In this document: piece by piece, positions 2,816-18,466 of the stretch
Numbering within the stretch: the first letter of the stretch is position 1
How the letters are laid out: each line of letters begins with the position of its first letter
Source of the DNA: a virus
Lineage: Duplodnaviria; Heunggongvirae; Uroviricota; Caudoviricetes
DNA: 22,230 nucleotides
IMG/VR virus record: IMGVR_UViG_2713896776_000007
Span: 1-22,230 of that record
Reading direction: 5' to 3' (one strand)
Made by a program: the position numbers and the translations under genes
Notes under the pieces: model-generated
What the model was told of the DNA's origin: nothing
Databases searched by the model: none
Seen by the model: only the letters and a program-made list of their open reading frames with translations

Positions 2816-3417
2816 TGAATAACGCAGAATTAAACAGTGAATTAATTGCCACTATGGCAGGAGAAATTACTGTTTATAACTTTGATGTCATGAGTCGGGA
2901 ATATATTTCAGCTTCAACTGAATATCTTGCTATTGGTGTCGGCATTCCGGCATATTCCTGTTTAGATGCCCCAGGCGCATACAAAGCTGGTTATGCAATC
3001 TGCCGTTCTGCAGATTTTAACTCATGGGAATATGTGCCAGACCATCGCGGTGAAACGGTCTATAGCACCGAAACAGGAGAATCAAAAGAAATCACCGCTC
3101 CGGGTGATTACCCTGAAAATACAACCACTATCGCCCCATTAACGCCATATGATAAATGGGATGGTGAGAAATGGGTGACGGATACCGAGGCACAGCATAG
3201 CGCCGCAGTAGATGCAGCAGAAGCACAGCGCCAGTCGCTGATTGATACTGCAATGGCGTCCATCAGTCTGATTCAACTGAAATTGCGGGCCGGACGTAAA
3301 CTGACGCCGGCAGAAACAACCCGGCTTAACGCTGTGCTGGATTACATTGAGGCGGTGACGGCAACAGATACCAGCACCGCGCCGGATGTCATCTGGCCTG
3401 AACTGCCGGAGGCGTAG
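2815..3417 (+). CDS. tail fibre assembly protein (U-prime/TfaE-like), 200 aa
   Basis: Start overlaps the stop of the preceding fibre segment (ATGA coupling). C-terminal ...DTSTAPDVIWPELPEA is typical of Tfa chaperones. Confidence 0.8.
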   Translation: MNNAELNSELIATMAGEITVYNFDVMSREYISASTEYLAIGVGIPAYSCLDAPGAYKAGYAICRSADFNSWEYVPDHRGETVYSTETGESKEITAPGDYPENTTTIAPLTPYDKWDGEKWVTDTEAQHSAAVDAAEAQRQSLIDTAMASISLIQLKLRAGRKLTPAETTRLNAVLDYIEAVTATDTSTAPDVIWPELPEA

Positions 3418-3841
3418 GCCATTCAATATCTGGTGCACTGGAGGTATCAACCAGCTCCAGTGCATCCAGATAATCCAGCCACAAATTATATTGCGCCAGT
3501 TCCTCACCTTTCAGACGACCAATAGCGGCTTTACCGGGCCATTGCTTACTGTTCATGTATTCGTTGGCCTGGTTAATTAGTAGCTGTCTTTCTGATTCAG
3601 TAATTTCAATAAGCTCTTCATGCGTGGGTGGAGGAATATCTGCCCACGCAGGCAGCCCATCATCTCCGGCAATACGGATTTTTCCTTGTGGCGGTTCAGC
3701 CATAAACTCACTGATAATATTCTGATTTACTTCCTTAGCGTCTGATAAATCCCATCCCTCTGATTTATATTTATCAATCATATCCACAGGAAAAAAAGCA
3801 TTATGCCTTGCGCTATAAACATATTCGTTCATATAAATCAC
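3389..3841 (-). CDS. tail fibre assembly protein (U/TfaP-like), about 147-150 aa
   Basis: MNEYVYSARHNAFFP N-terminus and DTSSAPDIEWPTPP C-terminus are typical of Tfa. The 3-prime end overlaps the convergent Tfa gene. True start may be the internal ATG at 3832. Confidence 0.8.
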   Translation of the reverse strand: MIYMNEYVYSARHNAFFPVDMIDKYKSEGWDLSDAKEVNQNIISEFMAEPPQGKIRIAGDDGLPAWADIPPPTHEELIEITESERQLLINQANEYMNSKQWPGKAAIGRLKGEELAQYNLWLDYLDALELVDTSSAPDIEWPTPPAVQAR

Positions 3842-3852
3842 CCTGAATAAAA

Positions 3853-4515
3853 TTACTCACCAACAGCCCACCAACTGTAATTCATCGATACCGTGTCGCT
3901 GGTTGATGACGTTCTGTAAGCAGAATTAAAACCGGTTAACGTTGGGTCTTCTGCCGTCATCACGAACCCTCGCCCAGCGCCTAAAGGCGCACCGCCATCA
4001 CCAGAATGAGTAAGCATGGCGCAGTCCGCTTTTTTGGGGAAAGGGATGCTGAATGTAATTCTCATTGTTTGCGTCGATAATGTCGGCGTAACCGCACCTC
4101 GACCATATTGCAGGATTTTACCGTTGGGTAATTTCATCCATCCATCACCACTGGCAAAAGAAGCCATGTCCGGTATCTGATTTTCCCCTGTCCCCACATC
4201 CCGTTTTGCCGCTTCTCCCAAACCAAGGTTTTCGAGAGCCGTTTTCACCGTGCCGTCCGATTTGATATCGCCAAACGGATTCTTGCGGCTTAACAGCAGC
4301 GCGCGAAGTGCGGTAAGCAACTGGTCATGCCTCCCCTTCTCCAGGCTGGTACCGGATGCCTCCACCACGCTGCAAAGCTCCTCCTGCAACATGTCAAAGT
4401 AGTCATCATCCAGATCGGTGGCAGGTGTGCCGGTCTGGGGGTTACCACGGGTAAAACCGTTCTTACCCGCGCCGAACTTATCCTTCTGCGCGGTTTTCGT
4501 GTCTATACGATGCAT
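3853..4515 (-). CDS. tail fibre protein (expressed orientation), StfP-like, 220 aa
   Basis: N-terminal [14 protein letters not shown] resembles the conserved fibre N-terminal attachment motif. The crossover site lies within the gene at the GLGE codons. Immediately downstream of the gp48-like gene. Confidence 0.75.
4213..4238. other. invertase crossover site (hix/gix-like), right end of invertible segment, inside the expressed fibre gene
   Basis: Plus strand TTCTCCCAAACCAAGGTTTTCGAGAG closely resembles Hin hixL as I recall it (TTCTTGAAAACCAAGGTTTTTGATAA). Inverted relative to 2310..2335. Confidence 0.55.
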
Positions 4516-4518
4516 GGA

Positions 4519-5103
4519 TTACTCCGGATATTTAAAAATTACGTAGGTATGCGACGGGCAGAGTTTGTTAAGCACACACTCGACTACGGTGTCGCCCCAG
4601 ATACGCAGTGCGGAATCACAGGGATCGCCACATGTCATCCAGGTGGTGTTGGTGGCGGCTGGCATGTTGACCTGCCAGTAATACCGCCATTCCGGCGCAT
4701 TCACCGCGTCAGTACAGGCAGATGAGCAGGTGAACGTGCTTTTGTCGTATCGCGTGATGGTGGCGTCTGGTCTGCCCAGGGCAGCAAGCTGTGCAAGGTA
4801 AAAATCCTCATTGATGCCGCCCGCCAGATTAACCTTCGCATCCAGCCGTTGCTGACGCTGGCGAAGGGTCTGCGTCCCTGCCGGAATACATTCATCCGGC
4901 AGGCCGCACAGACGCTCCCAGCGATTTATCAGTTCGGTGGTGGTGCGCGGATCCAGCTCCCGCATCAGGGCATCCGCACGCTGATGAACACGGGTTAATG
5001 AAGGTGCCGCACCGGCAATCGCCGGATCGCTGGCTGACCACGCCGGACCGGGCGGCAACAGTGCCGATAACAGGCGGATGTAATCATCGTTTGTCACGTC
5101 CAT
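4519..5103 (-). CDS. baseplate/tail protein, YmfQ / Mu gp48-like (DUF2313-type), 194 aa
   Basis: Same length as e14 YmfQ (194 aa) and same position between the baseplate J-like gene and the tail fibre. Confidence 0.65.
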
Positions 5104-6152
5104 GAAATCGTCCCCAGTACCGCCAGTTCGTTTTTCGCAATGGAAATATTGTCTGCCGGTGCAAGCAACTGATGGCTGTATTCCCCGTTCGCACCGGAAA
5201 TCGCCTCACTGATACGCGATACCTTCAGTTCTCCCTGCGGATAACCATCACGCAGCAGGAACGAACGCAACTCCGCGGTAATGGCAGCCCGTATTTCCGG
5301 TGTGTCCGGCGTCACGCGGATATGAAAATCCACCGTATGCGCCACCGGCCTGAACACATACAAATCAGAGCCTGCCACCGGGGCCAGAGGCCCGATATGT
5401 TGTCTTGCCGCCGTTTCCGTTGATTCTTCCGGAATGGGATTAATCAGGTCACTGCTGGCAATCATCACACCGACAGTTCCCGTTCCCATCCAGTGACGGT
5501 ATGTCCATGCGCGGGTAATGCCGGGCACTTCTTTAGCCCAGACGACATAGTCCCCGTCAGCCCCGCCCTGAAGCGTCCAGTAATACCGCTCAATGACGCG
5601 GGCGCGCCACGTTTCCAGATCTTCAGTATCGAATCCGCCAGTCAGGGTATCTGCAACACCGGAAGACGGCAGACCATTCACCGGCGTGACCAGGATTAAT
5701 GCCGTACCGTCGTCAGCGTTACCGACCGCGCCTGCACTTGAGCAAGTGATCGGCACGCGCAGGACACCACCGGAGCTGGTTGCATCAGCAGTTGCCGTGT
5801 ACTGAACCAGGTCAGCGCGCTGAATCACGCTCCCGGCGGTCACCTTCAGGCCATCGCTGACACCTTCCCAGCGCATATACCCGCTGGCAGCCGTGGCCCC
5901 CTTGCGCGGACACCGTTTCATCGCAGCATGTCGCGCCAGCCAGGACTCATCGCACAGGTCAGGCAGCATGTTCATTGCCAGATAATCGATGTAACCGTAA
6001 ACCGTATGCAGCGCCGCCGCATACACCTTTGCCCGCACGTCTTCATCCATGCGCCGGAGCGTGTCGCTGACGTCCAGCCTGGCGAATAAATCGTTACGGA
6101 GCATACTGATATTTTCTGCCAGCGTCGGGCGCTGAAATTCACTGTCCGCCAT
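5094..6152 (-). CDS. baseplate J-like protein (Mu gp47-like), 352 aa
   Basis: Size and position in the baseplate operon; overlaps neighbours by 10-14 nt (translational coupling). Confidence 0.65.
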
Positions 6153-6567
6153 GCGTTATCGCACTCCACAGATCATCAAAAGAAATCATTACCGGTCCGT
6201 CACGACGCCAGAGGGTGATACTGTTACCCAGCTCATTAATCCCGGTGCGGCGGATATCCAGATCAATACGGGACACCACGCCGTCATCAATCATCCATTG
6301 CAGGCATTCGCGGATATACCCCCTTACCGTCTGCACCAGCTGATTGGTCAGTTTGCTGCGCTGAAGCAGCCACAGTCGGGAGCCGTAACGGTCATTCTGT
6401 ACCGCAGGCCAGGTATCCCCCCACCATCCCATCGGGACGTCGGCGTTGTCATCAGGCTCCGCCCGCCGCCAGGTAAACATGGAAATCACCACGGCGCGGG
6501 TCAGCGGATCCAGCGGTGCGCTGGCGCAGGTGCGTTTACCGTTCACCGTCAGCCACAGTTCCATCAT
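6139..6567 (-). CDS. baseplate protein, Mu gp46 / GP46-family (lysozyme-like gp25 type), 142 aa
   Basis: Motifs GWWGD and GSRLWLL are as I recall for the GP46 family. 4-nt overlap with the upstream V-like gene. Confidence 0.6.
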   Translation of the reverse strand: MMELWLTVNGKRTCASAPLDPLTRAVVISMFTWRRAEPDDNADVPMGWWGDTWPAVQNDRYGSRLWLLQRSKLTNQLVQTVRGYIRECLQWMIDDGVVSRIDLDIRRTGINELGNSITLWRRDGPVMISFDDLWSAITHGGQ

Positions 6568-7112
6568 GCCTCCATCGCTTTATCAGGTTTGTCGGTGTTA
6601 CTGCCCTGACCGTTCTCTCTGTGACGATGCCCGTTATAGGCAAGCCGCATCGCTGACATGGTAGTGCCGCCGGAGTCGCACAGGTCTTTCACCTGTCCGG
6701 TCACTTCAAGGTCCATTTCAAAACGTGCTCTGGGCGCATTGCGAAACGTGATCGTTTTACCTGCACCGTCCACCACGATCCCCTCCCGGGTCAGCGTCAC
6801 AGACTGCCCCTGATCGTCATAGACAGCCACCTCACCCGTCTGCAGCCCTTTCAGGCGGTAGCGCCGGTCCGACACCGTAACAACCACCGCATGAGAACGG
6901 TCGCCATCCGGAAACAACACCACCGCTTCCGCACCGCTGTTTGCCCTTGCGGTAAAACCGTAGGGTTCAAGATGTTCAACCCCGGCTTTGGGTTCACCGG
7001 CAATCAGGGACACATCCACGGTCTGACATTTCGTGGCGGCGCTGATACTTTTCACCACTGCCCGCCCAATCAGGCCGAGAAGTTGTCGCTGCATGGCTTC
7101 AATCGTCCTCAT
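6564..7112 (-). CDS. baseplate assembly protein V (Mu gp45-like), 182 aa
   Basis: LEPYGFTA...GAEAVVLFPDGDRSHAVVV...RYRLKGLQTGEVAVYDD matches the gpV family signature. Confidence 0.7.
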   Translation of the reverse strand: MRTIEAMQRQLLGLIGRAVVKSISAATKCQTVDVSLIAGEPKAGVEHLEPYGFTARANSGAEAVVLFPDGDRSHAVVVTVSDRRYRLKGLQTGEVAVYDDQGQSVTLTREGIVVDGAGKTITFRNAPRARFEMDLEVTGQVKDLCDSGGTTMSAMRLAYNGHRHRENGQGSNTDKPDKAMEA

Positions 7113-8191
7113 CAGAACGGGTCCTCCTGTACTCTGGCTTTTTTCTTTTTCTGCGCGCCGGGGGCATCGGGTTCAGGCAGATAAGCATCAGGCGGGCCGA
7201 CACGGATTTCCGTCAGGGTGCCGTTCTGGTCCTGAGTAAACGTGACTTCCGAAACAAGCAGTTCGGTATTGTCAAAACCACAGACCGGATCAAAGACAAT
7301 CACCCGCTGGTTGGGCTGCCACAGCGTACCGTTACCCTGTCGCCAGCCCTGCACCACATAGGTGGTTTCATCCGTCCGCGCCGCCCGTTGCCGGGCTTCA
7401 AAGTCAGCACGCGCAATACAGCCAGCCCCCGTGGCCTGCCCTGTCTGCCTGATATACATCGGACGGTAACGGGCAATAAATGCGTCCTCTGTGCGGGCCC
7501 GCAGCGCGGTGGTGGTGGCCTCACCGAAATCATCGTCGTTTCCGGCACGCTGCCCCGCCACCTGGTAAACTGAAAACCGCTCCCGGATACTCTTCTCCGT
7601 ATCGCAGGAAAGGATGTTTTCCCCAAGTACCAGCGCGGTATGTGCCCGCGTTGAGCCAATACCGCCAATCACCAGCCTGCCGTGCGGATCGTCGTAAGCC
7701 AGTGCCTGCTGCTGACCGAGTATTTTGTTGATTACCTCAATCACCGTTTCACCGTGATCAGGCTGAACATCAGGAATAACACCCGACGGCGCACCGCTGT
7801 TCACCACCTCAATGCCGAAAGGCGCAGCAAGCGCCTGCGCAATCTGCACCAGCGAGCGTCCGTTAAACTGTGTCGGTTCGGCTGCACAGTCAATCAGGTC
7901 AGCCGTCAGACTACGTCCGGCAATACCGGTGCTGACCGAACGGGCATCGTAACGAACGGGCGTCGCCTCCACCCAGCCGGTGATCACCAGCTCATCACCA
8001 ATCAGCACCTCCACTTTTGAACCGTTTTTAATGCGCGGCTGAAGCGTGGTGATACCCTCATCACCCGGCCACTGGCGGGTGATCTCCACACTGAAATCCC
8101 GCGCCAGCCGTTCAATACCGGCACCGATGCGCACCGATGTCCAGCCATTCCACTCCCGGCCATTTACCCGTAGCGTGACATTGTCGTTCAT
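7112..8191 (-). CDS. tail/baseplate hub protein (Mu P / gp44-like), 359 aa
   Basis: Position between the DNA-circulation-like gene and the V-like gene; overlapping start and stop with both neighbours. Confidence 0.55.
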   Translation of the reverse strand: MNDNVTLRVNGREWNGWTSVRIGAGIERLARDFSVEITRQWPGDEGITTLQPRIKNGSKVEVLIGDELVITGWVEATPVRYDARSVSTGIAGRSLTADLIDCAAEPTQFNGRSLVQIAQALAAPFGIEVVNSGAPSGVIPDVQPDHGETVIEVINKILGQQQALAYDDPHGRLVIGGIGSTRAHTALVLGENILSCDTEKSIRERFSVYQVAGQRAGNDDDFGEATTTALRARTEDAFIARYRPMYIRQTGQATGAGCIARADFEARQRAARTDETTYVVQGWRQGNGTLWQPNQRVIVFDPVCGFDNTELLVSEVTFTQDQNGTLTEIRVGPPDAYLPEPDAPGAQKKKKARVQEDPF

Positions 8192-9564
8192 TGCACTGGC
8201 ACCTTCAGAGGGATCACCGGCACAAAGCCGGGATGCGTAATGGCATTACGCCGGATAATGTCCGCGTCACGCGCCGCGTTATCAAACCAGGTCGCCGCCA
8301 GCACCAGCGCGGGTAAAACCTCATCCGGTGTGCGCTGAATGATCCGAGCAGACTGTTCAAGGCGCGTGTTGATATCCGCATTCAGATCTGCTTTCACCCG
8401 GCGCAGCGCCAGAAACAGCGCATCACTGGTTGTACGGGACAACTCCTTATCAATTGCCGTATTCAGTGTGTCGCGAATGTCGGTCAGTTCTTCCCACGTT
8501 GGCAGGTCAACCGTGTTTTTCACCGCCGGTGCATTGTTCAGTGCCGGATGCGTGACGGAAGGCCAGCCGGAGCTCTGCGCGGGTGTTGTTGACTGCCCCA
8601 CTGCGGCATTCTGCATCACCGCAGAAGTTGTTGGCGCAGGCAATCGGGTGACGGCATACGCCGCTTCGCTGATTGCGGTCGTACGAAGGATGCTGGCAAC
8701 CACGTTACGCTGCTGCGTCGCCGTGGCGGTGGTTTTACTGTCCGTTTTCCAGACGCCGCGCGGTTGCAGATCGCTGCCGAGGCTGACACCGGAAAGCGTT
8801 TTGATCATGGTGACCAGGTCGCTGGCGTTACCATAAAGGCGTTTCCCGGTACGCCACATTTTCTGCACCTGCTCAACGAAATTTTTTCCTGACGATGGCG
8901 GCGGCAGAAGTACCGAGATATCCCCCTGCAACAGCCTGGCAGCATCCGATACGGCAGAATCCACCACTTTCATCGCATCAGAAACATACCCCAGCATTGT
9001 GCTGGCATTACCGACGACGTCGTTCTGCACAAAATCCGCCACGCCATCGATACTGAAACCACTGAAACTGTCACTGATGCAGTCATCCAGTGCAGAACAG
9101 GATGACATCAGCGTCTGCGCCGTCGCCGCACCTGATGTGGGGTAAGAGAGTTCTCCCGCTTCGACAAACTTCAGGTCAAAGCGGACAATACGCCCTTCAC
9201 TTTTCGATGTGCTGACCCGAACTTCCCCGTCAACACAGACTTTCAGCTCACCGTATGTCGGATGGACAAGCGTGCCGGGACCGGGTTTATTCAGCGCATC
9301 AATCAGGCGATCGCGCTGGTCAAAGCAGTCATCTCCCACCACATAAGCCGTGATGGACGGGCGGAAAGTAACTTTTCCCAGATCTTCGGTATAGGGCTTG
9401 TCGCGGTTCGGGTATTCGTGTGTTTCCACACGGCGACCGGTTCCCGCACTTTCTTCTTCAACCTTAAACGATACGCCGCGAAATGACGCGTCCTGAAGTC
9501 TGTCACGCCAGCCTGAAGACGACGAAAGTAATGAAGGTCGGGTGGGAAATGAGGATAAATCCAT
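8188..9564 (-). CDS. tail protein of the Mu N / DNA circulation family (gp43-like), 458 aa
   Basis: N-terminal WRDRLQDASFRGVSFKVEEE...GRRVETHEYPNRDKPYTEDLG is characteristic of the DNA-circulation N-terminal domain. Directly downstream of the tape measure. Confidence 0.7.
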   Translation of the reverse strand: MDLSSFPTRPSLLSSSSGWRDRLQDASFRGVSFKVEEESAGTGRRVETHEYPNRDKPYTEDLGKVTFRPSITAYVVGDDCFDQRDRLIDALNKPGPGTLVHPTYGELKVCVDGEVRVSTSKSEGRIVRFDLKFVEAGELSYPTSGAATAQTLMSSCSALDDCISDSFSGFSIDGVADFVQNDVVGNASTMLGYVSDAMKVVDSAVSDAARLLQGDISVLLPPPSSGKNFVEQVQKMWRTGKRLYGNASDLVTMIKTLSGVSLGSDLQPRGVWKTDSKTTATATQQRNVVASILRTTAISEAAYAVTRLPAPTTSAVMQNAAVGQSTTPAQSSGWPSVTHPALNNAPAVKNTVDLPTWEELTDIRDTLNTAIDKELSRTTSDALFLALRRVKADLNADINTRLEQSARIIQRTPDEVLPALVLAATWFDNAARDADIIRRNAITHPGFVPVIPLKVPVQ

Positions 9565-9588
9565 AGACTGACCTCAAAAAGGACTGCG

Positions 9589-11496
9589 TTATCGTGGAAA
9601 ACGAAAAGGGGAATACCCCACATCGTGCGTGATTTTCATCAGGGGATCGGCTTTGTCCGGTACATCAATTATCTTCATACCTGGCGGAGCATTCTCGAAC
9701 GTGACTTTCAGCTCGCTGTGCTGTGTCATGGAAGAAGATGGATTCAACAGCGGAACATTGGGTTTGTACTGACTCAGGCTGGCCTGATATTGCTCGTACT
9801 CTTTACGATCAAAAAAAGGCGTCCAGTCTGAAGCCAGAAACAGCCCTTTATTATCCAGCCAGTTAACCGTATCTTCAGGAACAACACTTTCCAGAGTATC
9901 TTTAACCGGCTCATACATCAGGGTTCCCAGAAAACCATATACCCCGGCCTTCCCGATAAAGCCGCGGCCTTTCCCCATCAATCCCGTTTCTGCCGATACC
10001 TTCCCCAGCGTACGCATCTCTCTGGTCACTGCGGTAATGGATTTGGTAACGTCAGCAACCCATTTGGTTGCCATAAACAGGGCAATCGCTTTCAGAACAG
10101 TTTCCCATCCCCCCATCGCCTGCGCCGTTTCATCCATCACGTGCCAGACTTTTTTTATGACAGGACCTACGGTTTCCCAGTTATCAATAATGAGGTAAGC
10201 GCCACCAACCAGAAGAGCAATCAGCCCCTTAGCAGGCGTCATATTCATCACACCGCCGAGAACTTTCATAATTCTGGACAAAGAGCCTGCAGCGGCTCCC
10301 ACCGTCAGTAAGGCCAGACCGATTTTAGCAATGGTCTTAACGAGCTCCGGGTTTTCACGGACAAACGTTCTCACTTCCTCAAGGAGCGGTTTTACCGCTT
10401 CAAGACCATCATTAACCTCAGGAAGAAACGTTTCCCCCAGCGTGGAAGAAATGGCATCAAGTTGATTTTGCAGAAGTAAAAGCTGGTTTTCCGTCGTCGC
10501 TGCCCTCGAAGCATATTCCTTCTGCATCGAACTGCCATACTGCTGGGAATCCGCAACCCGCCTGAAGTTGGTACGCAACAAATCAAGGTTAGTCAGCAGA
10601 GGTGCTATCGCGCCCAGAGACTCTTTCCCGAACAGGGCATTCAGCACAGCTGCCCGTTTTTCTTTAGGCACTTTAGCCATCGCATCCAGTACAGATAGCA
10701 TGGTGCCCCGGGCATCTTTCTGCATATCAGCAGCTAATTTCTTCGGATTGATCCGCAGAAAACGCAATGCCTGTTTCTGCGATTTTGTCGCAGAATTTCC
10801 CGCGGTCAGGGAAAGCATGAAGTTCTTGATCCCTGTGGCGGCAATTTCTGACTCCACGCCCATCCCGGCAATGGTTGCCCCCATTGCCGCGATTTCGCCG
10901 GAAGCCACACCTGCAACACCACCTAAAGGACCAATACGCGTAACAATATCGGAGATTTTCTTCGCGTTCGCCGGGCCGGTATTACCAAGGTAGTTGATTT
11001 TGTCAGCCAGCCCGGCCACTTCATCCTGCGTCATATTAAACGCAGTACGCCACTGGGCCATCATCTGCCCGGACTCTTCAGCCGTGGTATCAAAGGCCAC
11101 GCCCATCTTCACCGCATCAGTGGCAAACTGCATCAGTTCATCACGTGCAATCCCGGCCTGACCACCCGCCGCCACGATTTCAGCGATACCTTCCGCCGAC
11201 ATAGGCAGTTCGGTTGACAGGTCACGCACCTGCTCCGTCATGGCCTTAAACGCATCCGGCGTATCCAGACCGTCCACCACTTTGCGGACATCAGCCATCT
11301 TCGATTCAAGGGTGATGGCTGATTTTACAGGGAGTACCAGTGCCCCCATTATTGCAGTACCCGCCCCGGCAGCGCCCAGAGCAAGGCTGGAGACTTCTTT
11401 CTGAAATCCCTTAAGCTGACGCTGCATACCTTTAAGCGGGCCGGATAGCCTGTCAACGGCGGTGATGATGGCTTTCAGCTGAAAATTATCAGCCAT
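9589..11496 (-). CDS. tail tape measure protein (canonical position, Mu gp42-like), 635 aa
   Basis: Helical, Ala/Gly-rich with the tape-measure core (IAEIVAAGGQAGIARDELMQFATDAVKMGVAFD...INYLGNTGP) and a hydrophobic GGAYLIIDNW segment. Lies between the chaperone-like gene and the N-like gene. Confidence 0.8.
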   Translation of the reverse strand: MADNFQLKAIITAVDRLSGPLKGMQRQLKGFQKEVSSLALGAAGAGTAIMGALVLPVKSAITLESKMADVRKVVDGLDTPDAFKAMTEQVRDLSTELPMSAEGIAEIVAAGGQAGIARDELMQFATDAVKMGVAFDTTAEESGQMMAQWRTAFNMTQDEVAGLADKINYLGNTGPANAKKISDIVTRIGPLGGVAGVASGEIAAMGATIAGMGVESEIAATGIKNFMLSLTAGNSATKSQKQALRFLRINPKKLAADMQKDARGTMLSVLDAMAKVPKEKRAAVLNALFGKESLGAIAPLLTNLDLLRTNFRRVADSQQYGSSMQKEYASRAATTENQLLLLQNQLDAISSTLGETFLPEVNDGLEAVKPLLEEVRTFVRENPELVKTIAKIGLALLTVGAAAGSLSRIMKVLGGVMNMTPAKGLIALLVGGAYLIIDNWETVGPVIKKVWHVMDETAQAMGGWETVLKAIALFMATKWVADVTKSITAVTREMRTLGKVSAETGLMGKGRGFIGKAGVYGFLGTLMYEPVKDTLESVVPEDTVNWLDNKGLFLASDWTPFFDRKEYEQYQASLSQYKPNVPLLNPSSSMTQHSELKVTFENAPPGMKIIDVPDKADPLMKITHDVGYSPFRFPR

Positions 11497-11580
11497 GCTT
11501 CATCTCCTCATTTATACGGACGGCCTCTGCCTCCAGATCAGCAAAGTGGGAAATAGCCGTCCGGCGAAGTTCAAGGGGGT

Positions 11581-11904
11581 TTAATTTCCAGAACCACGCG
11601 ACATTGTAGAATCGCTTCCGGAGGTCTCTTCCGTCTCCAAGCCGGTAAAAAAACGCATTACAATCATGCCTGCCTTGAAAATATCCAGCTTCGTCATCTG
11701 CGCTGCAGACGAGCGCGGGATCCCGGCCAGAAGCGGGATATATTTCAGCGCCACCTGACTGTCCATTTTCATACCACCATCAGGCGAAACAGAGAAAGGG
11801 AACCCCAGCGCCTCAATCTCGTCATACGTAGGCTCACGTATTTCCAGCACATGCAGTGTTTCTTTGTGGGCGATGATCGGTTTTTTAAGTACAAGCTCAA
11901 TCAC
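11581..11904 (-). CDS. tail assembly chaperone candidate (Mu gp41-like), 107 aa
   Basis: Small acidic protein between tube and tape measure. No frameshift extension of 60 aa or more is visible in the ORF track. Confidence 0.45.
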   Translation of the reverse strand: MIELVLKKPIIAHKETLHVLEIREPTYDEIEALGFPFSVSPDGGMKMDSQVALKYIPLLAGIPRSSAAQMTKLDIFKAGMIVMRFFTGLETEETSGSDSTMSRGSGN

Positions 11905-12257
11905 TGGTAATCCCCTTCTTCACCGTGGAACTCAAGATCGACCGTGCCTTCTTCGGCATTATGGTTCGCTTCGCCGTGCAGCCAGGCAGACGACAGTACA
12001 TAGACCTGACCGTTCGCCAGCTCGGCAGTGATGGTCATCTCATCAGACGAGGTGATTTTGCTCACCGGAAAATTCTTCGGCACCTTGAAGGTCCCTTTGA
12101 CATAAGGCGCACGGTGAGTTTCCTTGCGGTCCACTGAACCGTCCAGGCCGATGATGTCATCATTGACCGTCCTGTTCATGGGCACCTCAATGCCGCCGGT
12201 CAGCGATAGCTGCTGACCGTCAATTTTGAAATAACAGGTTCCCCCGATACGGGCCAT
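11901..12257 (-). CDS. tail tube protein (Mu M-like), 118 aa
   Basis: Directly follows the sheath gene with overlapping start and stop; size typical of a Mu-type tube. Confidence 0.65.
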   Translation of the reverse strand: MARIGGTCYFKIDGQQLSLTGGIEVPMNRTVNDDIIGLDGSVDRKETHRAPYVKGTFKVPKNFPVSKITSSDEMTITAELANGQVYVLSSAWLHGEANHNAEEGTVDLEFHGEEGDYQ

Positions 12258-13753
12258 TATGCGGACTCCTCTGAATACTGAAGACGGAACTGGTTAACCA
12301 CGGCAAAGACACGCAACTGGTTAACATAGTCAGGCGGGAACAGCGTGTTCAGGCGGTTCGGATCGCTGGCATCACGCTCCACAACTAGGTACTGCTTAAA
12401 CAGTGCGTAGTTTTCCACGATCCCCGCACGCTCAAGCTGACGGTAGGTTGCCAGCAGTTCCCCTTTGATCACCGCCGGGGTGACAATCGCCTGACCGGGA
12501 CCAAAGCGGGTACCGTCACTGGCAAGCTTGTGACGCCCGTACTTACTGGTAATGACGGATTTCAGTTTGCGCAGTACATACGCGCTGGTATGCAGGGTCT
12601 CACTGTCTAGGTAGCTGTTATCCGCAACCCCGTAAGCGTTTTTCCTGTACGTGGTGACATCACGCTGAATGCGCAGTACCCCGCTTTCGACATACGCCGT
12701 TGCCACGCCATGAGACAGCAGGGTCTGTTGTTCGGTCATCGTGAACCGTTTCCCCTTCGGCGCAGGCAGCATACCCACCAGCTCACCGGTCTGCGTGGGA
12801 CGTGCCGGATCGTTGCGAATAAACACCGCTGCGCGGGCGGTACGGCTTGCCGCCAGTTCGTCGGCAGGCGTCTGGGTCTCTTTTTCGTACCCCGCCAGGG
12901 TAATGTGCTGCTGGTTAAACTGGTCACCTGCGGTCACCAGTTCTGACAGCGTGCCGATCTTTGCCGTATACACATGACCATACAGCTGACGCGCATAGCT
13001 CCAGCGACCGCTGGTATCGTTCATCTCGGTCACCAGCGTGTTAACGGAGGCCGTGTCGTTGAACGGCAGGCCGATATAATCAAACGGCTCATCCGCCATT
13101 GCAGCCACCGCGCCGGTGAGAACCGGAGCACCCGTTCCGGCGGTACCCGTCGCCACGGCAATCTGTACGCCCGCTGGCAGCACTTCGCCCCCACCAAAGC
13201 CGTAGTAATTGAGGCTGACAGGAATTTCATTCCCGCAAAGCCCCTTATGACGCGCGGTCAGTGTGACCACGCCTGCCGAAGATGAAGCCGTAAACGGCAG
13301 GGCCGGAACGGCATTGATGGCATCTTTGATACTGCTGGCAATCGTCGTGACGTTATCGCCGTTGGTCACCGGAGCCTGCACGCGGGTACGTCCCACATAG
13401 ACATTCACCGTGCCGGTTTCGGTTGCCGCCCCGGTCACCGTCAGCGTAACCGTTGCCGCCGCGCCTGTGGATTCAGGAACGGCAATCACATACAGCTCAC
13501 CAAACGGGTCGGTCTGGCGATAAGCCTCGACCATACGCGCCAGCTGACTTCCCGCACCACAAATCTGGCGTGCATAGTCTGCCGACGGCATCAGTACCAG
13601 ACTGTTGGCAACAATCTCTGCACCGTTATTGGCATGACCAATCAGCAGCGATGCTCCGCTGTCCTGTGCAGTATTCGCCGCCGAGTTATCCATTTCCGCA
13701 TAAAACAACGGAACCAGCGTATTCGACGGAATGGTGTTAAAGCTTATCGTCAT
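12257..13753 (-). CDS. contractile tail sheath protein (Mu L-like), 498 aa
   Basis: Size and position, followed by tube, chaperone and tape measure. Confidence 0.75.
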   Translation of the reverse strand: MTISFNTIPSNTLVPLFYAEMDNSAANTAQDSGASLLIGHANNGAEIVANSLVLMPSADYARQICGAGSQLARMVEAYRQTDPFGELYVIAVPESTGAAATVTLTVTGAATETGTVNVYVGRTRVQAPVTNGDNVTTIASSIKDAINAVPALPFTASSSAGVVTLTARHKGLCGNEIPVSLNYYGFGGGEVLPAGVQIAVATGTAGTGAPVLTGAVAAMADEPFDYIGLPFNDTASVNTLVTEMNDTSGRWSYARQLYGHVYTAKIGTLSELVTAGDQFNQQHITLAGYEKETQTPADELAASRTARAAVFIRNDPARPTQTGELVGMLPAPKGKRFTMTEQQTLLSHGVATAYVESGVLRIQRDVTTYRKNAYGVADNSYLDSETLHTSAYVLRKLKSVITSKYGRHKLASDGTRFGPGQAIVTPAVIKGELLATYRQLERAGIVENYALFKQYLVVERDASDPNRLNTLFPPDYVNQLRVFAVVNQFRLQYSEESA

Positions 13754-13915
13754 CGGTATTCACCTTTTTATTCACGCGCCGGATATCACCCGCTGCTTCA
13801 CGGCGCAGCCAGTAGTTGTTCTCGTCAACATTTCGCCCTTCGGCGGGCAAAAGGTCGCCGCGGGCAGGGTCAGGAACTGACCGCCCTTTAACAGGTTTCA
13901 CAAACATGAAGATTC

Positions 13916-14476
13916 TCAGGAAGGAAGGGTTATTTCGGTGTGATGTTCGATATCGCCGTCAGGCCCGTTACCGGGATCGAGATAATCAACATCAATCGCC
14001 AGCGTTCGCAGTTCATCCAGACTGTTCAGGTCATCCTGCTGGCGGGTATCGTCTTCAGTCAGCTCGCTGATGACCGAAAAATCGAACTGATAAATCAGCT
14101 CATGACGATTCAGATCCAGCAGCGTGCCGCCGTCATAGGTAATCGGGTTACCGCACGCCTCCGGGTTCCAGCCCAGCAGAGCCTTAAAGAGCATCTGCCG
14201 GACATCGTCCACCACATCATACGAGGCAAACTGACCGCGCTCATCACGCCCGTTACTCAGTATGACAACCACGGAGAAACCCTCTTTCAGCTCCTGCCAG
14301 TAGTCGGTCTGGCTTTTGTTTTCTCCCGGAGAATCATCACCCGGTACAACATATGCCGCCGGGAGTTTCAGCTTTCCGACCTCCGGCAGATTTTTGAACT
14401 GGGCCGCGCCTGCAACCCGGTTTTCAAAATACGGACAGCGGGCACGCAGTGCAGCAATAACAGGCGTCAGTTTCAT
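13916..14476 (-). CDS. tail completion / neck protein candidate (Mu gp37-like), 186 aa
   Basis: Position immediately upstream of the sheath gene; acidic C-terminus. Assignment is positional. Confidence 0.4.
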   Translation of the reverse strand: MKLTPVIAALRARCPYFENRVAGAAQFKNLPEVGKLKLPAAYVVPGDDSPGENKSQTDYWQELKEGFSVVVILSNGRDERGQFASYDVVDDVRQMLFKALLGWNPEACGNPITYDGGTLLDLNRHELIYQFDFSVISELTEDDTRQQDDLNSLDELRTLAIDVDYLDPGNGPDGDIEHHTEITLPS

Positions 14477-14704
14477 CTGTGTCGTCGCTCCGGCTTCAGT
14501 GATTTACGCAATTCCCGCGCCAGAAAATAGCGTGTCCAGCTGCGGTTCTTTTCAAGAGTTTCCACCATGAAGTTATTACGTGGAGCCAGTCGCCAGCCGC
14601 TGCCACCGGATGCACCTGATCCACCGCGCGATAAATAAGCCGCAATCCGTGAGATAAATGGACACGGTGCGGCTTTTCAGATACTGCAAAGGAATTACAA
14701 ATTA

Positions 14705-17182
14705 TCAGTCGTAAGCAACCCGGCGCTTACGGGCAAGAATAGCTTCCAGCGCTCTTTCAATCTCAGGAATGGACAGCTTAAGCGCATTCGCTACATCCGG
14801 TGCTGGTGACTTGTTCTTGCCATCAATATAGATATGGTTAATGACGTTAATCCCTGCACCTGCCGGTGAATGTGAATCCCGGCCTCTGGATAAGGTAAGG
14901 TCGCCGCGCATATAGCGCTCTAATACGGGTGGTACTTTCGGTACATCCGGCACCATCATATCAGCCAGCCGCGAGGAGGCTTTTAGCGCCAGCGATGCAG
15001 ACTGACCGATACCAATCGCCGCCCCTTCTGCGATGTTTGAACCGAAGCCCATAAAGACCCGGCTTGGCGAGTGAATCCCCAGCTTTTCCTTGAACCACCC
15101 GCCGACGCTATCGCCCATCTCGGTAACGGTATTCTTGAGCGACTCCCACTTATTTTTGATACCGTTCACCAGTCCGTCAATCAGGTGACCGCCAAACTCG
15201 GTAAACTGGCCGGGAAGGTCGATGTTAAACCACTTCATGACCCCCGCAAACGCCTTGTAGAACAGCCCCAGCGGCGACCAGTTCAGGATTAGCTTACTGA
15301 CGCCGAGAACGCCGCCGTTAAAGGCCGTTTTGACTTCCTCCCATCGCTGTGAGAACCATCGACTTATTGCCCCCCAGTTGCGGTATATCAGGTATGCGCC
15401 CCCGGCGATGACGGTTATCGCAATGCCTAAGGGATTCATCATCAGCGCCCGGCCAAACCAGAGAAATGCTTTTGCAACGACCATGACGCCCCTGAACAGC
15501 CCACCTGCCAGCGCTTTACCCAGCGTCCCGGCTCCCTTCGCTACGGTACTGAATCCAGTAGCCAGCCAGCGCAACCTGCCACCAACACCAAGGGCGGCTT
15601 TCAGCTTCACCCAATGAGTGTGTACCAGAACAGCGTTTTTCCACATCCCAACAAAAGGTGAAAAAAGCAGATTAAGGCCGAGCTTCAGACCGACAGTGGC
15701 AATTTTCAGCCCCAGCAGTGCGCCCACGGTTTTTGCCACACCCTGAACAAGCGTCGGATGTTGCTCTATCCAGAGCTTCGTTGTCTGAATCATCGGGATT
15801 AATTGCCGGGTTGCTGACACAAATGTAGGGGACAACTGATCGCCGAGAGAGATAGATAAATCACGGGTGTTTATCATCAGGGCTTTGGTTGCTTCCAGCG
15901 GCGATTTGAGCCTTTCAGCATAGGATGCCGCCAGCAGGTCATTATCAGCCGCTTTAAGTGCACCAGAGCGGATTGCCCTGTATTTATCCATGTTAGCAAG
16001 CATAGGGCGAACGAACGCCATTACCTGCATATCGGTGAACATCTCACCCAGCCCAAAGTTTTTAGCCAGACTTTGTAAGGCCTCGTCCCGCGCTTTGTTG
16101 TCCTGAATTTGCATTGCGGATTTAAAACCAGCCAGAGCTTTCGGACTCGTTGCATTAAGGTATCTTTGGGTTACATCCAGCATACCTTCAATGGGGGAAA
16201 CTCCGGCTGCTTTATAATTCGCAAGAGACCCCATCAGGTCGATACCTAAATCGGCAAATCGCTTCTGCGTATCAGGCGCAAAAATCTTGGTGAGGAAGTT
16301 CCTGAAATTGTTTGCAGTCTCATCCGGTGAACCTGAACCAATCATAGCGACCTGCAAACTGGCCCCAATCTCCGCCACTGCATCCTTACCGTCTGCAATA
16401 CCCTGCATCATCGGCGCAAGCGACTGAATCCATTTCACCTGGTCAGGGATTTCAAAAGACCCCTGGTCACCTGCGTAGGCCATGATGTTCTGTACCGCGC
16501 CAAATTCTTTTGCGCTGCCTTTCAGCGAGTTTTGCCACACCGCCGCAACCTTTGCCCATTCCGTTCCTGCGGTACGGGTTGCCGTGGCTGCACGGGCGAT
16601 ATTCGGCATGTAGTTGCCAATATCTGAAAGCCCGTCAATGTTATCGCTGATAAGTGAACCAACGGCGTCCTGCATATCGCTCTGATACTGGTTGTATTTG
16701 AGCGACCACCCTTTGATTTGCTCTCCCAGAGTCTTACGGGTTTTATCGTCATATTTCGCTGTGATTGACATATCAATCATTTTATCTTCAAACGATGCCG
16801 ACTGTTCTATAGCCGGGGACACAAGACTGTAAGCAGCCCTGACTTGTGCATACGCCTCTACTCCCTGACCGTAGAGCGCCATGCGGTTAGATTTCAGGGC
16901 GTCAGAAGTGGCAGACGCTGCCGACAGGCGGGACTGCTGGCGGTTAAGCTGTTCCAGCGTTCTGCCGACCCGTTGCAGGTCATTGTTCAGGCGCGAGGCT
17001 ACGCCCGAACCAACCTGACCGTAACGCTGCATGGCGCGTGACAGGCTGCTTTGCTGCTCCGTCAGTCGGCGTGAGGTGTCGCCGAGAGAATCCAGAGTAC
17101 GCCGGGTACTGCTCATCGCGGAACGAAAACTGCTCCCGACAATGCCGCCAATCATCACGCCAACAGAAAAATTATTGCTCAT
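14705..17182 (-). CDS. second tape-measure-like protein, 825 aa (paralog of the 635-aa tape measure)
   Basis: Coiled-coil N-terminus, tape-measure core, Gly/hydrophobic segments including GGAYLIYRNW (compare GGAYLIIDNW in the 635-aa protein), and a C-terminal GIHSPSRVF motif as in lambda-H-type tape measures. Confidence 0.6.
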   Translation of the reverse strand: MSNNFSVGVMIGGIVGSSFRSAMSSTRRTLDSLGDTSRRLTEQQSSLSRAMQRYGQVGSGVASRLNNDLQRVGRTLEQLNRQQSRLSAASATSDALKSNRMALYGQGVEAYAQVRAAYSLVSPAIEQSASFEDKMIDMSITAKYDDKTRKTLGEQIKGWSLKYNQYQSDMQDAVGSLISDNIDGLSDIGNYMPNIARAATATRTAGTEWAKVAAVWQNSLKGSAKEFGAVQNIMAYAGDQGSFEIPDQVKWIQSLAPMMQGIADGKDAVAEIGASLQVAMIGSGSPDETANNFRNFLTKIFAPDTQKRFADLGIDLMGSLANYKAAGVSPIEGMLDVTQRYLNATSPKALAGFKSAMQIQDNKARDEALQSLAKNFGLGEMFTDMQVMAFVRPMLANMDKYRAIRSGALKAADNDLLAASYAERLKSPLEATKALMINTRDLSISLGDQLSPTFVSATRQLIPMIQTTKLWIEQHPTLVQGVAKTVGALLGLKIATVGLKLGLNLLFSPFVGMWKNAVLVHTHWVKLKAALGVGGRLRWLATGFSTVAKGAGTLGKALAGGLFRGVMVVAKAFLWFGRALMMNPLGIAITVIAGGAYLIYRNWGAISRWFSQRWEEVKTAFNGGVLGVSKLILNWSPLGLFYKAFAGVMKWFNIDLPGQFTEFGGHLIDGLVNGIKNKWESLKNTVTEMGDSVGGWFKEKLGIHSPSRVFMGFGSNIAEGAAIGIGQSASLALKASSRLADMMVPDVPKVPPVLERYMRGDLTLSRGRDSHSPAGAGINVINHIYIDGKNKSPAPDVANALKLSIPEIERALEAILARKRRVAYD

Positions 17183-17214
17183 GGTTCACTCCGGTAATGA
17201 GTGGTTCGGTGGCG

Positions 17215-17808
17215 TCATTCGGTCAGGGACAGGCCGCTGATTCCGGTAATCCCGGCAATTTCCTCGCTGACAGCCATCAGTTCACTTTCAAGCCCGGTAC
17301 GTTCGCTGACCAGCGCCGCAACGGTCTTACGGCGTTCTGCCAGTGACGGAAGTTTGTCATTGCCCCACACCACGCTTTTATCCTTCTTAAGCGCTTCGGT
17401 CAGGCGGGTGGCGACCACATCCGGGAAGAAAAAGCAGAGCTTGCGCATAACCGCCATCCCGGTATCAGCCGGGGAGATGTTTCCACCCAACCCCACCAGA
17501 CGGAACAGGCCGGAAATATCGCCGCTCTCATTCTCCAGATTGCCCCAGCGTTCGGCGTTCCCTTCACTGCCGGAACTGTTGCAGAGGACACGCTTGAATG
17601 ACTGATATTCTTCCTGCCCGAATCGCTCAATATATTCAGGAATGAAAGAACAGTAATCATTAAGCGATAAAGGCATATCCTGTAATGTGGTTATTTCGCC
17701 GTTAATTTCACTAATGCGGCGAGAGAGTTTTTCTTTCTGCTCATTCAGGGAGGCAAGATTATTTTTAACGGCGTTCAGTGCTTCGATAAGGGAAATAACT
17801 GGTTTCAT
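17215..17808 (-). CDS. hypothetical phage protein with N-terminal coiled coil, 197 aa (scaffold or chaperone-like?)
   Basis: ORF in operon orientation, start adjacent to the stop of the upstream gene. No recognisable motif. Confidence 0.45.
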   Translation of the reverse strand: MKPVISLIEALNAVKNNLASLNEQKEKLSRRISEINGEITTLQDMPLSLNDYCSFIPEYIERFGQEEYQSFKRVLCNSSGSEGNAERWGNLENESGDISGLFRLVGLGGNISPADTGMAVMRKLCFFFPDVVATRLTEALKKDKSVVWGNDKLPSLAERRKTVAALVSERTGLESELMAVSEEIAGITGISGLSLTE

Positions 17809-17809
17809 T

Positions 17810-18424
17810 TTAATAACTCCAGATAAAAGGCGTGGTGAGTGTGAGTGCTTCGGAATAGGAGACGTTACAGGCTTCGCTTACATCCTTTATTAAAAGGTGC
17901 TGCGCTGCTCTCTGGCTGTCAGCTATGCCGTCGAACTCTGAGAAATAAACGTGTGATTCATTGTGACCAAAACAGACCGGGTAAGCGCTTTCCATAAATT
18001 CCACCTGCTCCAGCCCTTTAACGGCTGGCGGCTGTGAGCCGAGAAAACCGATATGGCGTAGATACCAAGCTCCGGTGCCTGCCGGGTTGCTGGCCTCGCC
18101 GGGCTTATAGAATGACGCAGATACTTTCCTGTAACGCCCTGAGCGCACCAGCCCCAGCAGGGTATCATCCGGTTTTACCAGTGCGAAAAGCCTGCCGTTC
18201 TTGCTTATCAGTCCGGTGGTTTCGCCATAGGCCGGGCTGTTACTGGCCGGATGCCCCAGACACAGCGGCGCACCGTAACCCGCGCTGCGATAGCCGTTAT
18301 AGGCCGCTGCCATGTTGTCGATATCCTCGTCGGAAAAGCTGATTTCCTGTCCCGCCATCGCGGTATGCGTTCCCGCCCGGAATATCTCAATCGTTTTCCA
18401 GTTGCCCAAATTAAGATTTGTCAT
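17810..18424 (-). CDS. hypothetical phage late protein, 204 aa; weak resemblance to the Mu I prohead-protease N-terminal domain
   Basis: First gene after the Mor-like activator. Motifs GHP...PAYG and GRYRKVSASF resemble my recollection of the Mu-like I protein family; unverified. Confidence 0.3.
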   Translation of the reverse strand: MTNLNLGNWKTIEIFRAGTHTAMAGQEISFSDEDIDNMAAAYNGYRSAGYGAPLCLGHPASNSPAYGETTGLISKNGRLFALVKPDDTLLGLVRSGRYRKVSASFYKPGEASNPAGTGAWYLRHIGFLGSQPPAVKGLEQVEFMESAYPVCFGHNESHVYFSEFDGIADSQRAAQHLLIKDVSEACNVSYSEALTLTTPFIWSY

Positions 18425-18466
18425 TTACCTGTTCTCGGTTGTGATGTGTAAACAGTGCTTTGCTGC

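Follow-up and report, generated by a model that had tools for sequence, protein, structure and literature searches.

A second tape measure gene beside an SfV-like tail cluster and the inserted Mu-type element, a possible phage satellite, that carries it

Why should one phage tail be served by two length rulers? The question is raised by a stretch of DNA of 22,230 nt (IMG/VR virus record IMGVR_UViG_2713896776_000007, positions 1 to 22,230), here called the window, in which two genes for tail tape measure proteins (TMPs) are found. According to the original prediction, which was made from the letters of the window, these are paralogous genes of one tail cluster. We now consider it fairly probable that the window holds an SfV/e14-like prophage with a single, 635-aa TMP and, inserted into it, a nonautonomous element of the BcepMu lineage that can be read as a helper-dependent satellite with a ruler of its own. 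Assignment of the second, 825-aa TMP gene to an inserted Mu-type element is close to certain.

Two tape measure proteins and the boundary between them

The two TMP genes and the tail genes around them are as follows, in window coordinates.

8188..9564, minus strand: DNA-circulation protein of the contractile-tail cluster, which also holds baseplate genes
9589..11496, minus strand: 635-aa TMP of the SfV/e14-like tail module (PF10145, PhageMin_Tail, E 3e-43; phrog_28, E 1e-142)
11581..11904, minus strand: chaperone
11901..12257, minus strand: tube
12257..13753, minus strand: sheath
13916..14476, minus strand: tail terminator
14473..14616, minus strand: 3' remnant of a neck (head-tail) gene, 47 codons of a 168-aa gene, cut by the insertion
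14705..17182, minus strand: 825-aa BcepMu-type TMP, the terminal gene of the element (PF10145, E 4e-19; phrog_28, E 6e-121 over aa 1-824)

The chaperone, tube, sheath and terminator genes (11581..14476) have Pfam matches (as a set, PF10109, PF10618, PF04984/PF17482/PF17481 and PF23840) and are collinear with the corresponding locus of Escherichia coli PapRG-04-4.

Both TMP open reading frames (ORFs) exist as predicted, and hidden Markov model searches place their products in a shared TMP family, each protein matching PF10145 and TMP families of the PHROGs collection over most of its length. The near-identical hydrophobic segment that first drew attention to the pair is also real. It reads GGAYLIIDNW at aa 431 of the shorter protein and GGAYLIYRNW at aa 594 of the longer, in each case closing the second hydrophobic segment, and this ungapped match of 8 of 10 residues was equalled in 1 of 200 shuffles. 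Alignment of the two proteins, however, yields only 20% identity over 392 aa (E 2e-6). This value rules out recent paralogy, and the two are better described as distant members of one superfamily. Likewise, the motif GIHSPSRVF is present at aa 702 of the longer protein, but its description as lambda-H-like finds no support, and neither does a lambda-H origin, because the 853-aa lambda-H-type TMP of locus L001 lacks an SPS motif. The TMP of a BcepMu-type prophage in E. coli EC958 has GIHSPSRVFMGFG conserved.

Judged by homology, the 825-aa protein is a genuine TMP. The TMP core domain is present, and the protein is 70.6% identical to the TMP of phage PhiKM and 70% identical over aa 1-699 to the 983-aa TMP of the EC958 prophage, with which it is collinear to the C terminus. 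More distant relatives, BcepMu gp44 (32%) and phiE255 gp18, align at 32-34% identity over 100% of its length. Its gene does not follow a tail assembly chaperone (TAC) gene in a tail operon; the genes upstream encode a Mor-family activator, a protease-like protein (p204) and a further protein (p197).

By similarity, positions 1 to 14616 of the window are an SfV/e14-like prophage. Over the stretch compared (9000-14616), the DNA matches a PapRG-04-4 prophage at 100% identity and phages SfV, SfI, SfII, SfIV and vB_EcoM-720R4 at 97-98%. The order sheath, tube, chaperone, TMP, DNA circulation and baseplate, together with this near-identity to SfV-group phages, marks an SfV-like tail module, and the 635-aa gene occupies the canonical TMP place in it, as had been proposed. 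The DNA of the 635-aa gene is 100% identical in the PapRG-04-4 prophage and 97-98% identical in SfV, SfI, SfII and SfIV; across the TMP, chaperone, tube, sheath and terminator genes, identity to the SfV, SfI, SfII, SfIV and e14-like prophages is 97-100%.

The PapRG-04-4 prophage is intact, SfV-like and located at the e14 site, and it encodes a single TMP. Ahead of its tail terminator come the 168-aa neck gene, the head closure and connector genes, and the capsid, protease, portal and terminase genes. No match of SfV type extends beyond window position 14616. An intact neck gene is found at positions 14474-14980 of locus L017 (WP_000224838.1), between the genes for the head closure protein and the tail terminator, and the window and L017 match up to ...GGATGCACC and diverge thereafter. 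Unlike the SfV-group and e14-like prophages, the window copy therefore has its neck gene, upstream of the tail terminator, broken by the element. These comparisons remove the premise of one tail with two rulers, because intact SfV-like relatives carry no second TMP gene. They also place the 825-aa gene outside the tail cluster to which it had been assigned, within a separate inserted element that begins where SfV-like identity ends. As far as gene comparison can tell, the 635-aa gene is the sole length ruler of the resident prophage, which insertion of the element into the neck gene has probably disabled.

Ends, copies and target sites of the inserted element

The element comprises 7,754 bp, starts at 14616|14617 inside the neck gene and runs past the window end; the position of its far end, ~140 bp beyond the window, is derived from copies of 7,754 bp. 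Window positions 14614-22230 recur with 99.97% identity in E. coli AW1.7, where the segment interrupts a lambdoid prophage within its major capsid gene and has no SfV-like tail beside it. Another copy, in CX21, is 92% identical and lies between the chromosomal genes dacD and sbmC. When the three junctions (window, AW1.7 and CX21) are aligned, similarity starts at one base, TGATCCACCGCGCGATAAAT..., which is window position 14617, and the flanks are unrelated. The other boundary of the element ends ...CATGTCTAATCA. Its termini are of the form TG...CA (TGATCC...TAATCA), the terminal ~31 nt make up an imperfect inverted repeat, and the motifs GAGATAAAT and GTGAGATAA are repeated at both ends. Thus, the Mu-type combination of 5'-TG...CA-3' termini with inverted, repeated motifs resembling transposase-binding sites is present. 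The terminus that lies within the window is the following.

14617..14700, no strand: TMP-side terminus (TGATCCACCGCGCGATAAAT...GTGAGATAAATGG...GAATTACA), which forms inverted repeat I2 with the other end of the element and can be aligned to the right end of the BcepMu-type prophage of EC958

An identical 825-aa protein, its neighbours always the same, has been recorded in 10 or more different contexts, among them sites by fli/dcm, serS/dmsC, ligA, metH, eno and ulaA, as well as a plasmid-/ICE-like region, a P4-like island and the interior of a lambdoid prophage. In all eight insertions checked, a perfect target site duplication (TSD) of 6 bp was found, different in each case and therefore constant only in length. 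The sequences read are AAGACA/TGTCTT, ACTCAT, CATATG, AGCCAC, GCAGCC, ATTCGG and AAATGG, from copies with both flanks read; the right end of the window copy lies outside the window. Comparison of the copies establishes Mu-type transposition as the route of insertion and, because identical copies reside at many sites, recent activity of the element. For the window copy, a simple insertion would predict, ~140 bp past the window end, ...CATGTCTAATCA followed by TGCACC and ACGATGATGACTACG... (ACGATGATG...), and then the rest of the neck gene and the head and terminase genes.

The three explanations offered originally, namely a junction between mosaic tail modules, the remnant of another phage or a TMP-like protein put to a new use, can be reassessed in this light. 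They anticipated correctly that a foreign, phage-derived junction is present (14616|14617), and the 825-aa protein is indeed of a separate, BcepMu-type lineage. A mosaic of tail modules or a random remnant does not fit, because the junction coincides exactly with the end of a discrete Mu-type element of 7.75 kb that recurs intact with 6-bp duplications.

A notable fraction of the insertions have landed in other mobile DNA, namely the capsid gene of a lambdoid prophage, a P4-like island, a ParAB plasmid-/ICE-like region, a conjugative element and the SfV-like neck gene. This distribution may simply reflect tolerance of insertions in dispensable DNA, although each such insertion inactivates a competitor. 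Many homologs of p197 and p204 are encoded on contigs of 7-10 kb (Logan and ENA assemblies), which is the size of a whole element. Contigs of this length would be expected if the element had heterogeneous flanks in those samples, being multicopy or actively transposing.

Scans with Pfam, PHROGs and PADLOC revealed no recognisable transposase, integrase or recombinase in any ORF of the element, and neither a DDE transposase (MuA) domain nor a MuB-like ATPase domain was found among them. The element is therefore either nonautonomous or dependent on an unrecognised enzyme.

Similarity of phage DNA to the element region is confined to Bcepmuvirus phages of E. coli and Klebsiella, and there to the TMP gene. 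In PhiKM and in the BcepMu-type prophage of the sequence type 131 (ST131) strain EC958, the homologous TMP (983 aa in EC958) has its canonical place after the sheath, tube and chaperone genes. The EC958 prophage is flanked by the 6-bp TSD TTCTTC, equal in length to those of the element. Its ends (left, TGATTAGACTTGAGATAAAT...GTGAGATATTT; right, TGATGCGCCGCGCGATAAAT...GTGCGATAAATGG...GAATTACA) both align with those of the element, with 19 of the first 20 nt identical at one end and the repeated motifs kept at both, and the TMP-side end of the element is the equivalent of the right end of the phage. Alignment thus demonstrates that the element resembles, at both of its ends, a transposable phage common in E. 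coli; PhiKM-type prophages are present in 643 of 5,426 complete genomes of this species.

Genes, selection and relatives of the element

The remaining genes of the element fall into two arms. From a divergent center, the ribbon-helix-helix (RHH) gene, p114 and the gene for a Gp27-like N-terminal domain are oriented toward one end. The genes for a DUF3102 protein, p96, Mor, p204, p197 and TMP are oriented, in this order, toward the other.

17215..17808, minus strand: p197, an all-helical coiled-coil protein specific to the element family (helical AlphaFold 2 model)
17810..18424, minus strand: p204, a short prohead (capsid maturation) protease domain without scaffold part (phrog_976, E 2e-45, profile positions 31-173 of 415)
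18467..18823 (ORF extendable to 18841), minus strand: Mor-family transcription activator (PF08765, E 2e-21; annotated Mor in AW1.7)
18842..19062, minus strand: conserved noncoding region upstream of Mor, with a terminator-like hairpin and two 20-nt direct repeats
19063..19353, minus strand: p96, a small fast-evolving protein (no family match in Pfam or PHROGs)
19350..20111, minus strand: DUF3102 protein, a 253-aa ORF annotated as 247 aa (PF11300, E 3e-5; phrog_1748, E 2e-23)
20232..20423, plus strand: 63-aa RHH (HicB/Arc-like) protein, candidate repressor (PF05534, E 4e-6; phrog_228, Arc-like repressor, E 1e-6)
20460..20545, no strand: three 16-nt palindromes TGATAAATATTTATCA at an exact 35-bp spacing, candidate operators (repeat family D1 / inverted repeat I4; the same as L001 21847-21932)
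20561..20905, plus strand: p114, an ORF with no significant family match
20906..21885, no strand: ~1 kb without long ORFs, with a perfect 34-nt inverted repeat (21193-21226 / 21444-21477) flanking 217 nt
21886..22230, plus strand: 114-aa protein in which Mu Gp27, the small terminase, is represented by its N-terminal, DNA-binding part only (PF11985, profile positions 1-50 of 173, E 4e-14)

This gene content, in which an activator, an RHH protein with operator-like sites, the N-terminal domain of a small terminase, a short prohead protease and a TMP are combined, is that looked for in a satellite. In Pfam and PHROGs scans of the element, no gene was found for a capsid, portal, large terminase subunit, sheath, tube or baseplate protein, and no TAC among its ORFs. 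A PADLOC scan for defence systems returned no matches.

Sequence profiles and a structural model identify p204 as a stand-alone prohead protease domain. Residues H58, S102 and H124 are invariant across 45 homologs, and the AlphaFold model (pLDDT 82) matches the assemblin proteases of herpesviruses (Foldseek probability 1.0, E 3e-4) and T4 gp21. Homologs of p204 form one class of ~200 aa and another of ~290-356 aa, the latter sized like the protease-scaffold proteins of phages (371 aa in PhiKM). For p197, whose homologs are restricted to Enterobacterales, no Pfam or PHROGs family and no significant profile or fold match was found. One might guess at a scaffold-like or chaperone-like role. However, sequence, profile and fold comparisons lend no support to p197 as the scaffold half of a split protease-scaffold protein or as a chaperone. 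Its similarity to an equivalently placed 200-aa protein of a distant element is a weak, collinear match of 21%.

The noncoding region upstream of Mor (18842..19062) is almost invariant in three variants of the element, although the flanking p96 gene is highly diverged. Its direct repeats, GCTGTAAMGCTTTMTAAGCC, lie 69 bp apart (18865-18884 and 18934-18953), two occurrences where 0.02 would be expected by chance. The region is a candidate for an activator-dependent promoter of a Mor-p204-p197-TMP operon. The 20-nt repeat was not found in the helper-type prophage at locus L014, and a regulatory motif common to the element and that prophage was accordingly discarded.

The RHH protein and the TGATAAATATTTATCA palindromes resemble, from their arrangement, a repressor-operator switch. 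The palindromes sit between the RHH gene and p114 and overlap two promoter-like sites (20483-20538). Their half-site, GATAAAT, recurs in the terminal repeats of the element. The inverted-repeat locus in the 1-kb stretch beyond p114 could be a miniature inverted-repeat transposable element, an invertible segment or a small RNA locus, and terminator-like hairpins lie near the repeat. A hidden transposase or RNA gene in this stretch was considered and rejected, since it contains no long ORF and all Rfam matches are below threshold.

Compared protein by protein with PhiKM, the element is uneven. Identity is 71% for the TMP, 34% for the DUF3102 protein and 29% for Mor, p204 reaches 41% against the N-terminal portion of the protease/scaffold protein (371 aa), and the Gp27-like protein is 45% identical to the small terminase subunit over the first 55 residues only. 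No counterpart was found in PhiKM for p197, p96, p114 or the RHH protein. The DUF3102 homolog, likewise 34% identical in EC958, is an early-region protein encoded upstream of the transposase. Moreover, no single deletion from the phage map would yield the gene order of the element. The EC958 TMP (L015 13311-16262) is 158 aa longer than that of the element, and the main difference is an internal tandem duplication of ~87 aa, in which residues ~607-699 are repeated at ~694-786.

Rates of substitution relative to the CX21 variant (dS ~0.3) suggest that much of the element is maintained by selection. For the TMP, dN/dS over all 825 codons is 0.083; the values for p204, p197 and Mor are 0.075, 0.089 and 0.10, and by this measure all four are under purifying selection. 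The DUF3102 protein (0.27) and p96 (0.48) change faster. A full-length, orthologue-like TMP kept under selection is thus established by sequence comparison.

The Mor-p204-p197-TMP module, with a TMP of 825-829 aa as its terminal gene, extends to Intestinirhabdus, Yersinia, Salmonella and Dickeya, and further relatives were recognised by p204.

Intestinirhabdus alba: module copy, TMP of 828 aa
Yersinia intermedia: module in a conjugative element, TMP of 827 aa
Salmonella enterica: module copy, TMP of 825 aa
Dickeya oryzae: diverged form, TMP of 829 aa
Tenebrionibacter: p204 homolog, 96% identical
Erwinia tracheiphila: two copies by p204; the one looked at is damaged, with p197 disrupted and the TMP truncated to 627 aa

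The right arm of the element varies among copies, and TMP lengths in the lineage are 825-829 aa, 983 aa (EC958 prophage) and 1026 aa (KCJ3K291, L016 6081-9161). Short p204-like proteins of 40-50% identity are encoded on many further contigs of 7-10 kb, two of which were inspected. The first (L050/L051, Logan), an 8.8-kb contig with unmapped ends, encodes a TMP of 969 aa, Mor, a helix-turn-helix protein, a short protease and a 200-aa protein, together with tail completion protein S and a 178-aa protein that has only the DNA-binding subdomain of the Mu transposase. The second (L052/L053, JGI) is an element of ~9.5 kb (roughly 124-9626) with inverted ends that carry repeated motifs. It encodes a CI-like repressor, a protein of 712 aa that occupies the MuA position and has no Pfam match, a MuB-like ATPase, GemA, Mor, a short protease, TAC and GpE, and a TMP of 578 aa, and no capsid, portal, terminase, sheath, tube or baseplate genes were found in it. 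Taken together, these relatives indicate that compact elements unable to build a virion alone repeatedly bring together Mu-type ends, Mor, a short protease and a TMP.

At the far end of the window, within the resident prophage, an RnlA/RnlB (RNase LS) toxin-antitoxin pair is encoded on the minus strand (RnlB 408-770, RnlA 763-1944). It adjoins a Pin-like invertase cut down to its resolvase N-terminal domain (1893-2291, 132 aa, minus strand). In the otherwise near-identical PapRG-04-4 prophage, a full pinE and a GIY-YIG gene occupy the position of 408-2291. The GC content of this segment is ~41%, compared with ~55% in the tail genes.

A satellite reading, its rivals and known systems

How might an element of this kind live? 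In the satellite model, the transposase of a resident or coinfecting BcepMu-type helper, of the PhiKM/EC958-prophage type, would act in trans, binding the common terminal repeats to replicate and move the element. Silence would be kept by the RHH repressor at its three operators, and Mor would activate the Mor-protease-p197-TMP operon while the helper grows. Helper packaging and capsid assembly would be the points of contact for the truncated small-terminase DNA-binding protein and the short prohead protease, and the element would be packaged in particles made by the helper. Finally, the 825-aa TMP would replace the helper TMP in helper-encoded tails. At 0.15 nm per residue, its 158 fewer residues than the EC958 prophage TMP would make a tail ~24 nm shorter.

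Mobilisation and packaging by a specific helper would find indirect support in the likeness of the ends to those of E. coli BcepMu-type phages. That the TMP is more helper-like than the other element proteins fits a need to contact the chaperone, tube and baseplate of the helper. We give even odds to the view that the element is a satellite dependent on a helper and that its TMP goes into tails. Slightly more tentative is the proposal that a new class of satellites exists, comprising natural mini-Mu elements of 7.7-9.5 kb that would spread by Mu-type transposition, most of them borrowing the transposase of a BcepMu-type helper through mimicry of its ends. Their core would be Mor, a stand-alone prohead protease and a TMP of their own, and they would be carried in particles whose tail is chimeric (here shorter) and whose capsid may be remodelled.

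Induction, packaging and helper dependence are predictions from the genes and their comparison, and several observations weigh against the satellite model. Eight complete carrier genomes (CX04, CX05, CX07, CX15, CX21, MS 115-1, KCJ3K291 and LR536431) show no PhiKM-type transposase by megablast, so that coresidence with the proposed helper is not the rule. This was a crude test, made with one chimeric query of element plus transposase. In AW1.7, three places matched the query, the best of them being the element. In a lineage of 23 carrier genomes of ST131 type, a second place matched, and ST131 strains such as EC958 do carry a PhiKM-type prophage. In that same lineage, which includes O25:H4/ST131, the element is present at one locus without the TMP gene and with an IS5 insertion, and the TMP is therefore dispensable for persistence in the chromosome. 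This related copy, fixed near tRNA-Ser/infA (L045, E. coli ZH063, 7001-11160), still encodes p197, p204, the RHH protein and a Mor of greater length. In its E. coli form, the element lacks a gene for a tail assembly chaperone, and p197 shows no detectable similarity to a scaffold or chaperone. The three IMG/VR matches are prophage predictions from isolate genomes rather than virion DNA, and give no evidence of packaging. Lastly, the right junction and TSD of the window copy were recovered neither in complete E. coli genomes nor in exact-pattern scans of genome and metagenome contigs, and exact look-up of the 31-aa remnant ORF gave no match.

Helper assembly is a common target of satellite interference, and tail assembly is among the steps known to be disturbed. 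The 825-aa protein might accordingly have been repurposed against phages, as a dominant-negative ruler that poisons the tails of helpers or competitors or as an entry or exclusion factor, with no tails of the element being built. Precedents for attack on assembly exist: Rta of the Vibrio cholerae satellite PLE11 targets tail assembly (PMC12987554), and a prophage-encoded defence is reported to block virion assembly (PMC10884400). An element without a chaperone, tube or sheath of its own, and with a TMP shorter than that of the helper type, could fit such a role. Still, we think this unlikely. The full-length collinearity of the protein and the conservation of its N terminus, hydrophobic segments and C-terminal motif are what an assembling ruler needs, PADLOC finds nothing in the element, and interference could in any case coexist with use as a ruler.

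A little less likely again is an inert deletion remnant, the debris of a decaying BcepMu-like prophage that kept both ends and a functionless TMP. Every recognisable gene does have a homolog in BcepMu-type phages, there is no transposase, and degraded copies are known: that of ST131 without TMP and with IS5, that of E. tracheiphila with a truncated TMP and that of locus L010 with an IS insertion. Decay is difficult to reconcile, however, with a gene order that one deletion from a phage cannot give, or with identical copies at many sites, which signify recent activity. Most of the proteins are only 29-45% identical to their phage homologs, yet the architecture is kept in lineages diverged by 8-13% in DNA and in several genera, and strong purifying selection acts across all 825 codons of the TMP.

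We rate lower still the chance that the element is an autonomous transposon, which would move itself without a helper, its transposase (perhaps the DUF3102 protein or some other product that lacks annotation) having escaped recognition. A PhiKM-type transposase is missing from many carriers, and yet identical copies reside at many sites. In the related 9.5-kb element, moreover, a MuB-like gene is accompanied by an ORF of 712 aa at the place of MuA. Against this, no ORF of the element bears a DDE, integrase or recombinase signature, the DUF3102 homolog of the phage is a separate gene beside a true DDE transposase, and the two ends of the phage are both imitated by those of the element, as mobilisation in trans would require.

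An assembly artefact, in which a multicopy repeat was joined to the wrong flank, is very improbable. The element can be multicopy in one sample (two contigs in one JGI sample) and the junction was found in no searched collection, but the prophage stops within a gene exactly at the first base of the element, so that a real copy with a neck-gene flank would still be required. The weakest reading, that both TMPs belong to one hybrid tail module formed by recombination, gains from their genes lying 3.2 kb apart on the same strand but is already refuted by intact relatives with neck, head and terminase genes here and no second TMP, by a break at the exact terminus of a transposable element, and by the 20% identity of the proteins.

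If the satellite model is right, a satellite that rides on the transposase of its helper would represent a new mode of parasitism. It would also explain why identical copies are scattered in chromosomes, plasmids, ICEs, other satellites and rival prophages, some of which are knocked out (SfV-like here, lambdoid in AW1.7). In annotation, a "phage tail tape measure protein" encoded beside a Mor gene within TGAT...ATCA ends should not be assigned to the neighbouring prophage. We found no description of a Mu-like or transposable phage satellite in the literature searched, although absence there is no proof.

Among known systems, the closest in sequence are the E. coli Bcepmuvirus phages and their relatives (PhiKM, PQ738613; the EC958/ST131 prophage; BcepMu; phiE255), which share homologous repeats at both ends, a 6-bp TSD and homologous proteins with the element. 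They differ in being 35-37 kb long and in encoding their own DDE transposase, an ExeA/MuB-like protein, lysis genes, terminase, portal, capsid, sheath, tube and baseplate, and their TMP gene follows the chaperones in a tail operon, unlike that of the element.

Laboratory mini-Mu constructs, in which the ends of Mu surround a short insert, are moved, replicated and packaged only when a helper Mu provides A, B and the morphogenesis functions. The element is similar to these constructs, and to mini-Mu-duction, in having Mu-type ends around a short insert. Mini-Mu derivatives, however, are engineered deletions, whereas the element is natural, conserved and under selection, and has its own regulators, protease, terminase-like DNA-binding protein, TMP and 6-bp TSD. 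P4-like satellites, PICIs, cf-PICIs and EPIPs are likewise compact and carry a repressor, a late-gene transactivator (Delta in P4; here Mor) and genes that redirect packaging or the capsid, and cf-PICIs and EPIPs have putative TMP genes as well. These satellites use site-specific integrases and att sites, and none is reported to move by Mu-type transposition. To our knowledge, all well-studied satellite families (P4-like, PICI, cf-PICI and PLE) integrate by site-specific recombinases. An unrelated satellite, AH14b of Pseudomonas, was considered as a related case and set aside.

Experimental demonstration of a satellite with a ruler of its own is very recent and concerns PLE. PLE satellites of V. 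cholerae encode a TMP, a TAC and a hub protein (TMP, TAC and BhuB in PLE11), and the PLE TMP is built into tails instead of that of ICP1, with a difference of 95 aa making the tails 10 nm shorter (PMC12987554). This exchange lets the satellite escape Rta, its own inhibitor of the helper TMP, and putative tmp genes are also noted in cf-PICIs (PMC12987554). EPIP satellites of Mycolicibacterium carry a TMP and have altered tails (PMC12822802). The element shares with PLE a small design that lacks most structural genes and includes a TMP, and it would likewise depend on a helper. PLE integrates by a recombinase, exploits a lytic myovirus, has TAC and hub genes and Rta, and encodes a TMP only 20% identical to that of its helper. 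The element, by comparison, has Mu-type ends and TSDs, no integrase, no TAC that could be found, and a TMP 71% identical to that of its candidate helper. If it is indeed a satellite, it would be an independent case of a trait demonstrated by experiment for PLE, and it suggests that TMP substitution could be a general strategy of hijacking, one that can be tested in E. coli.

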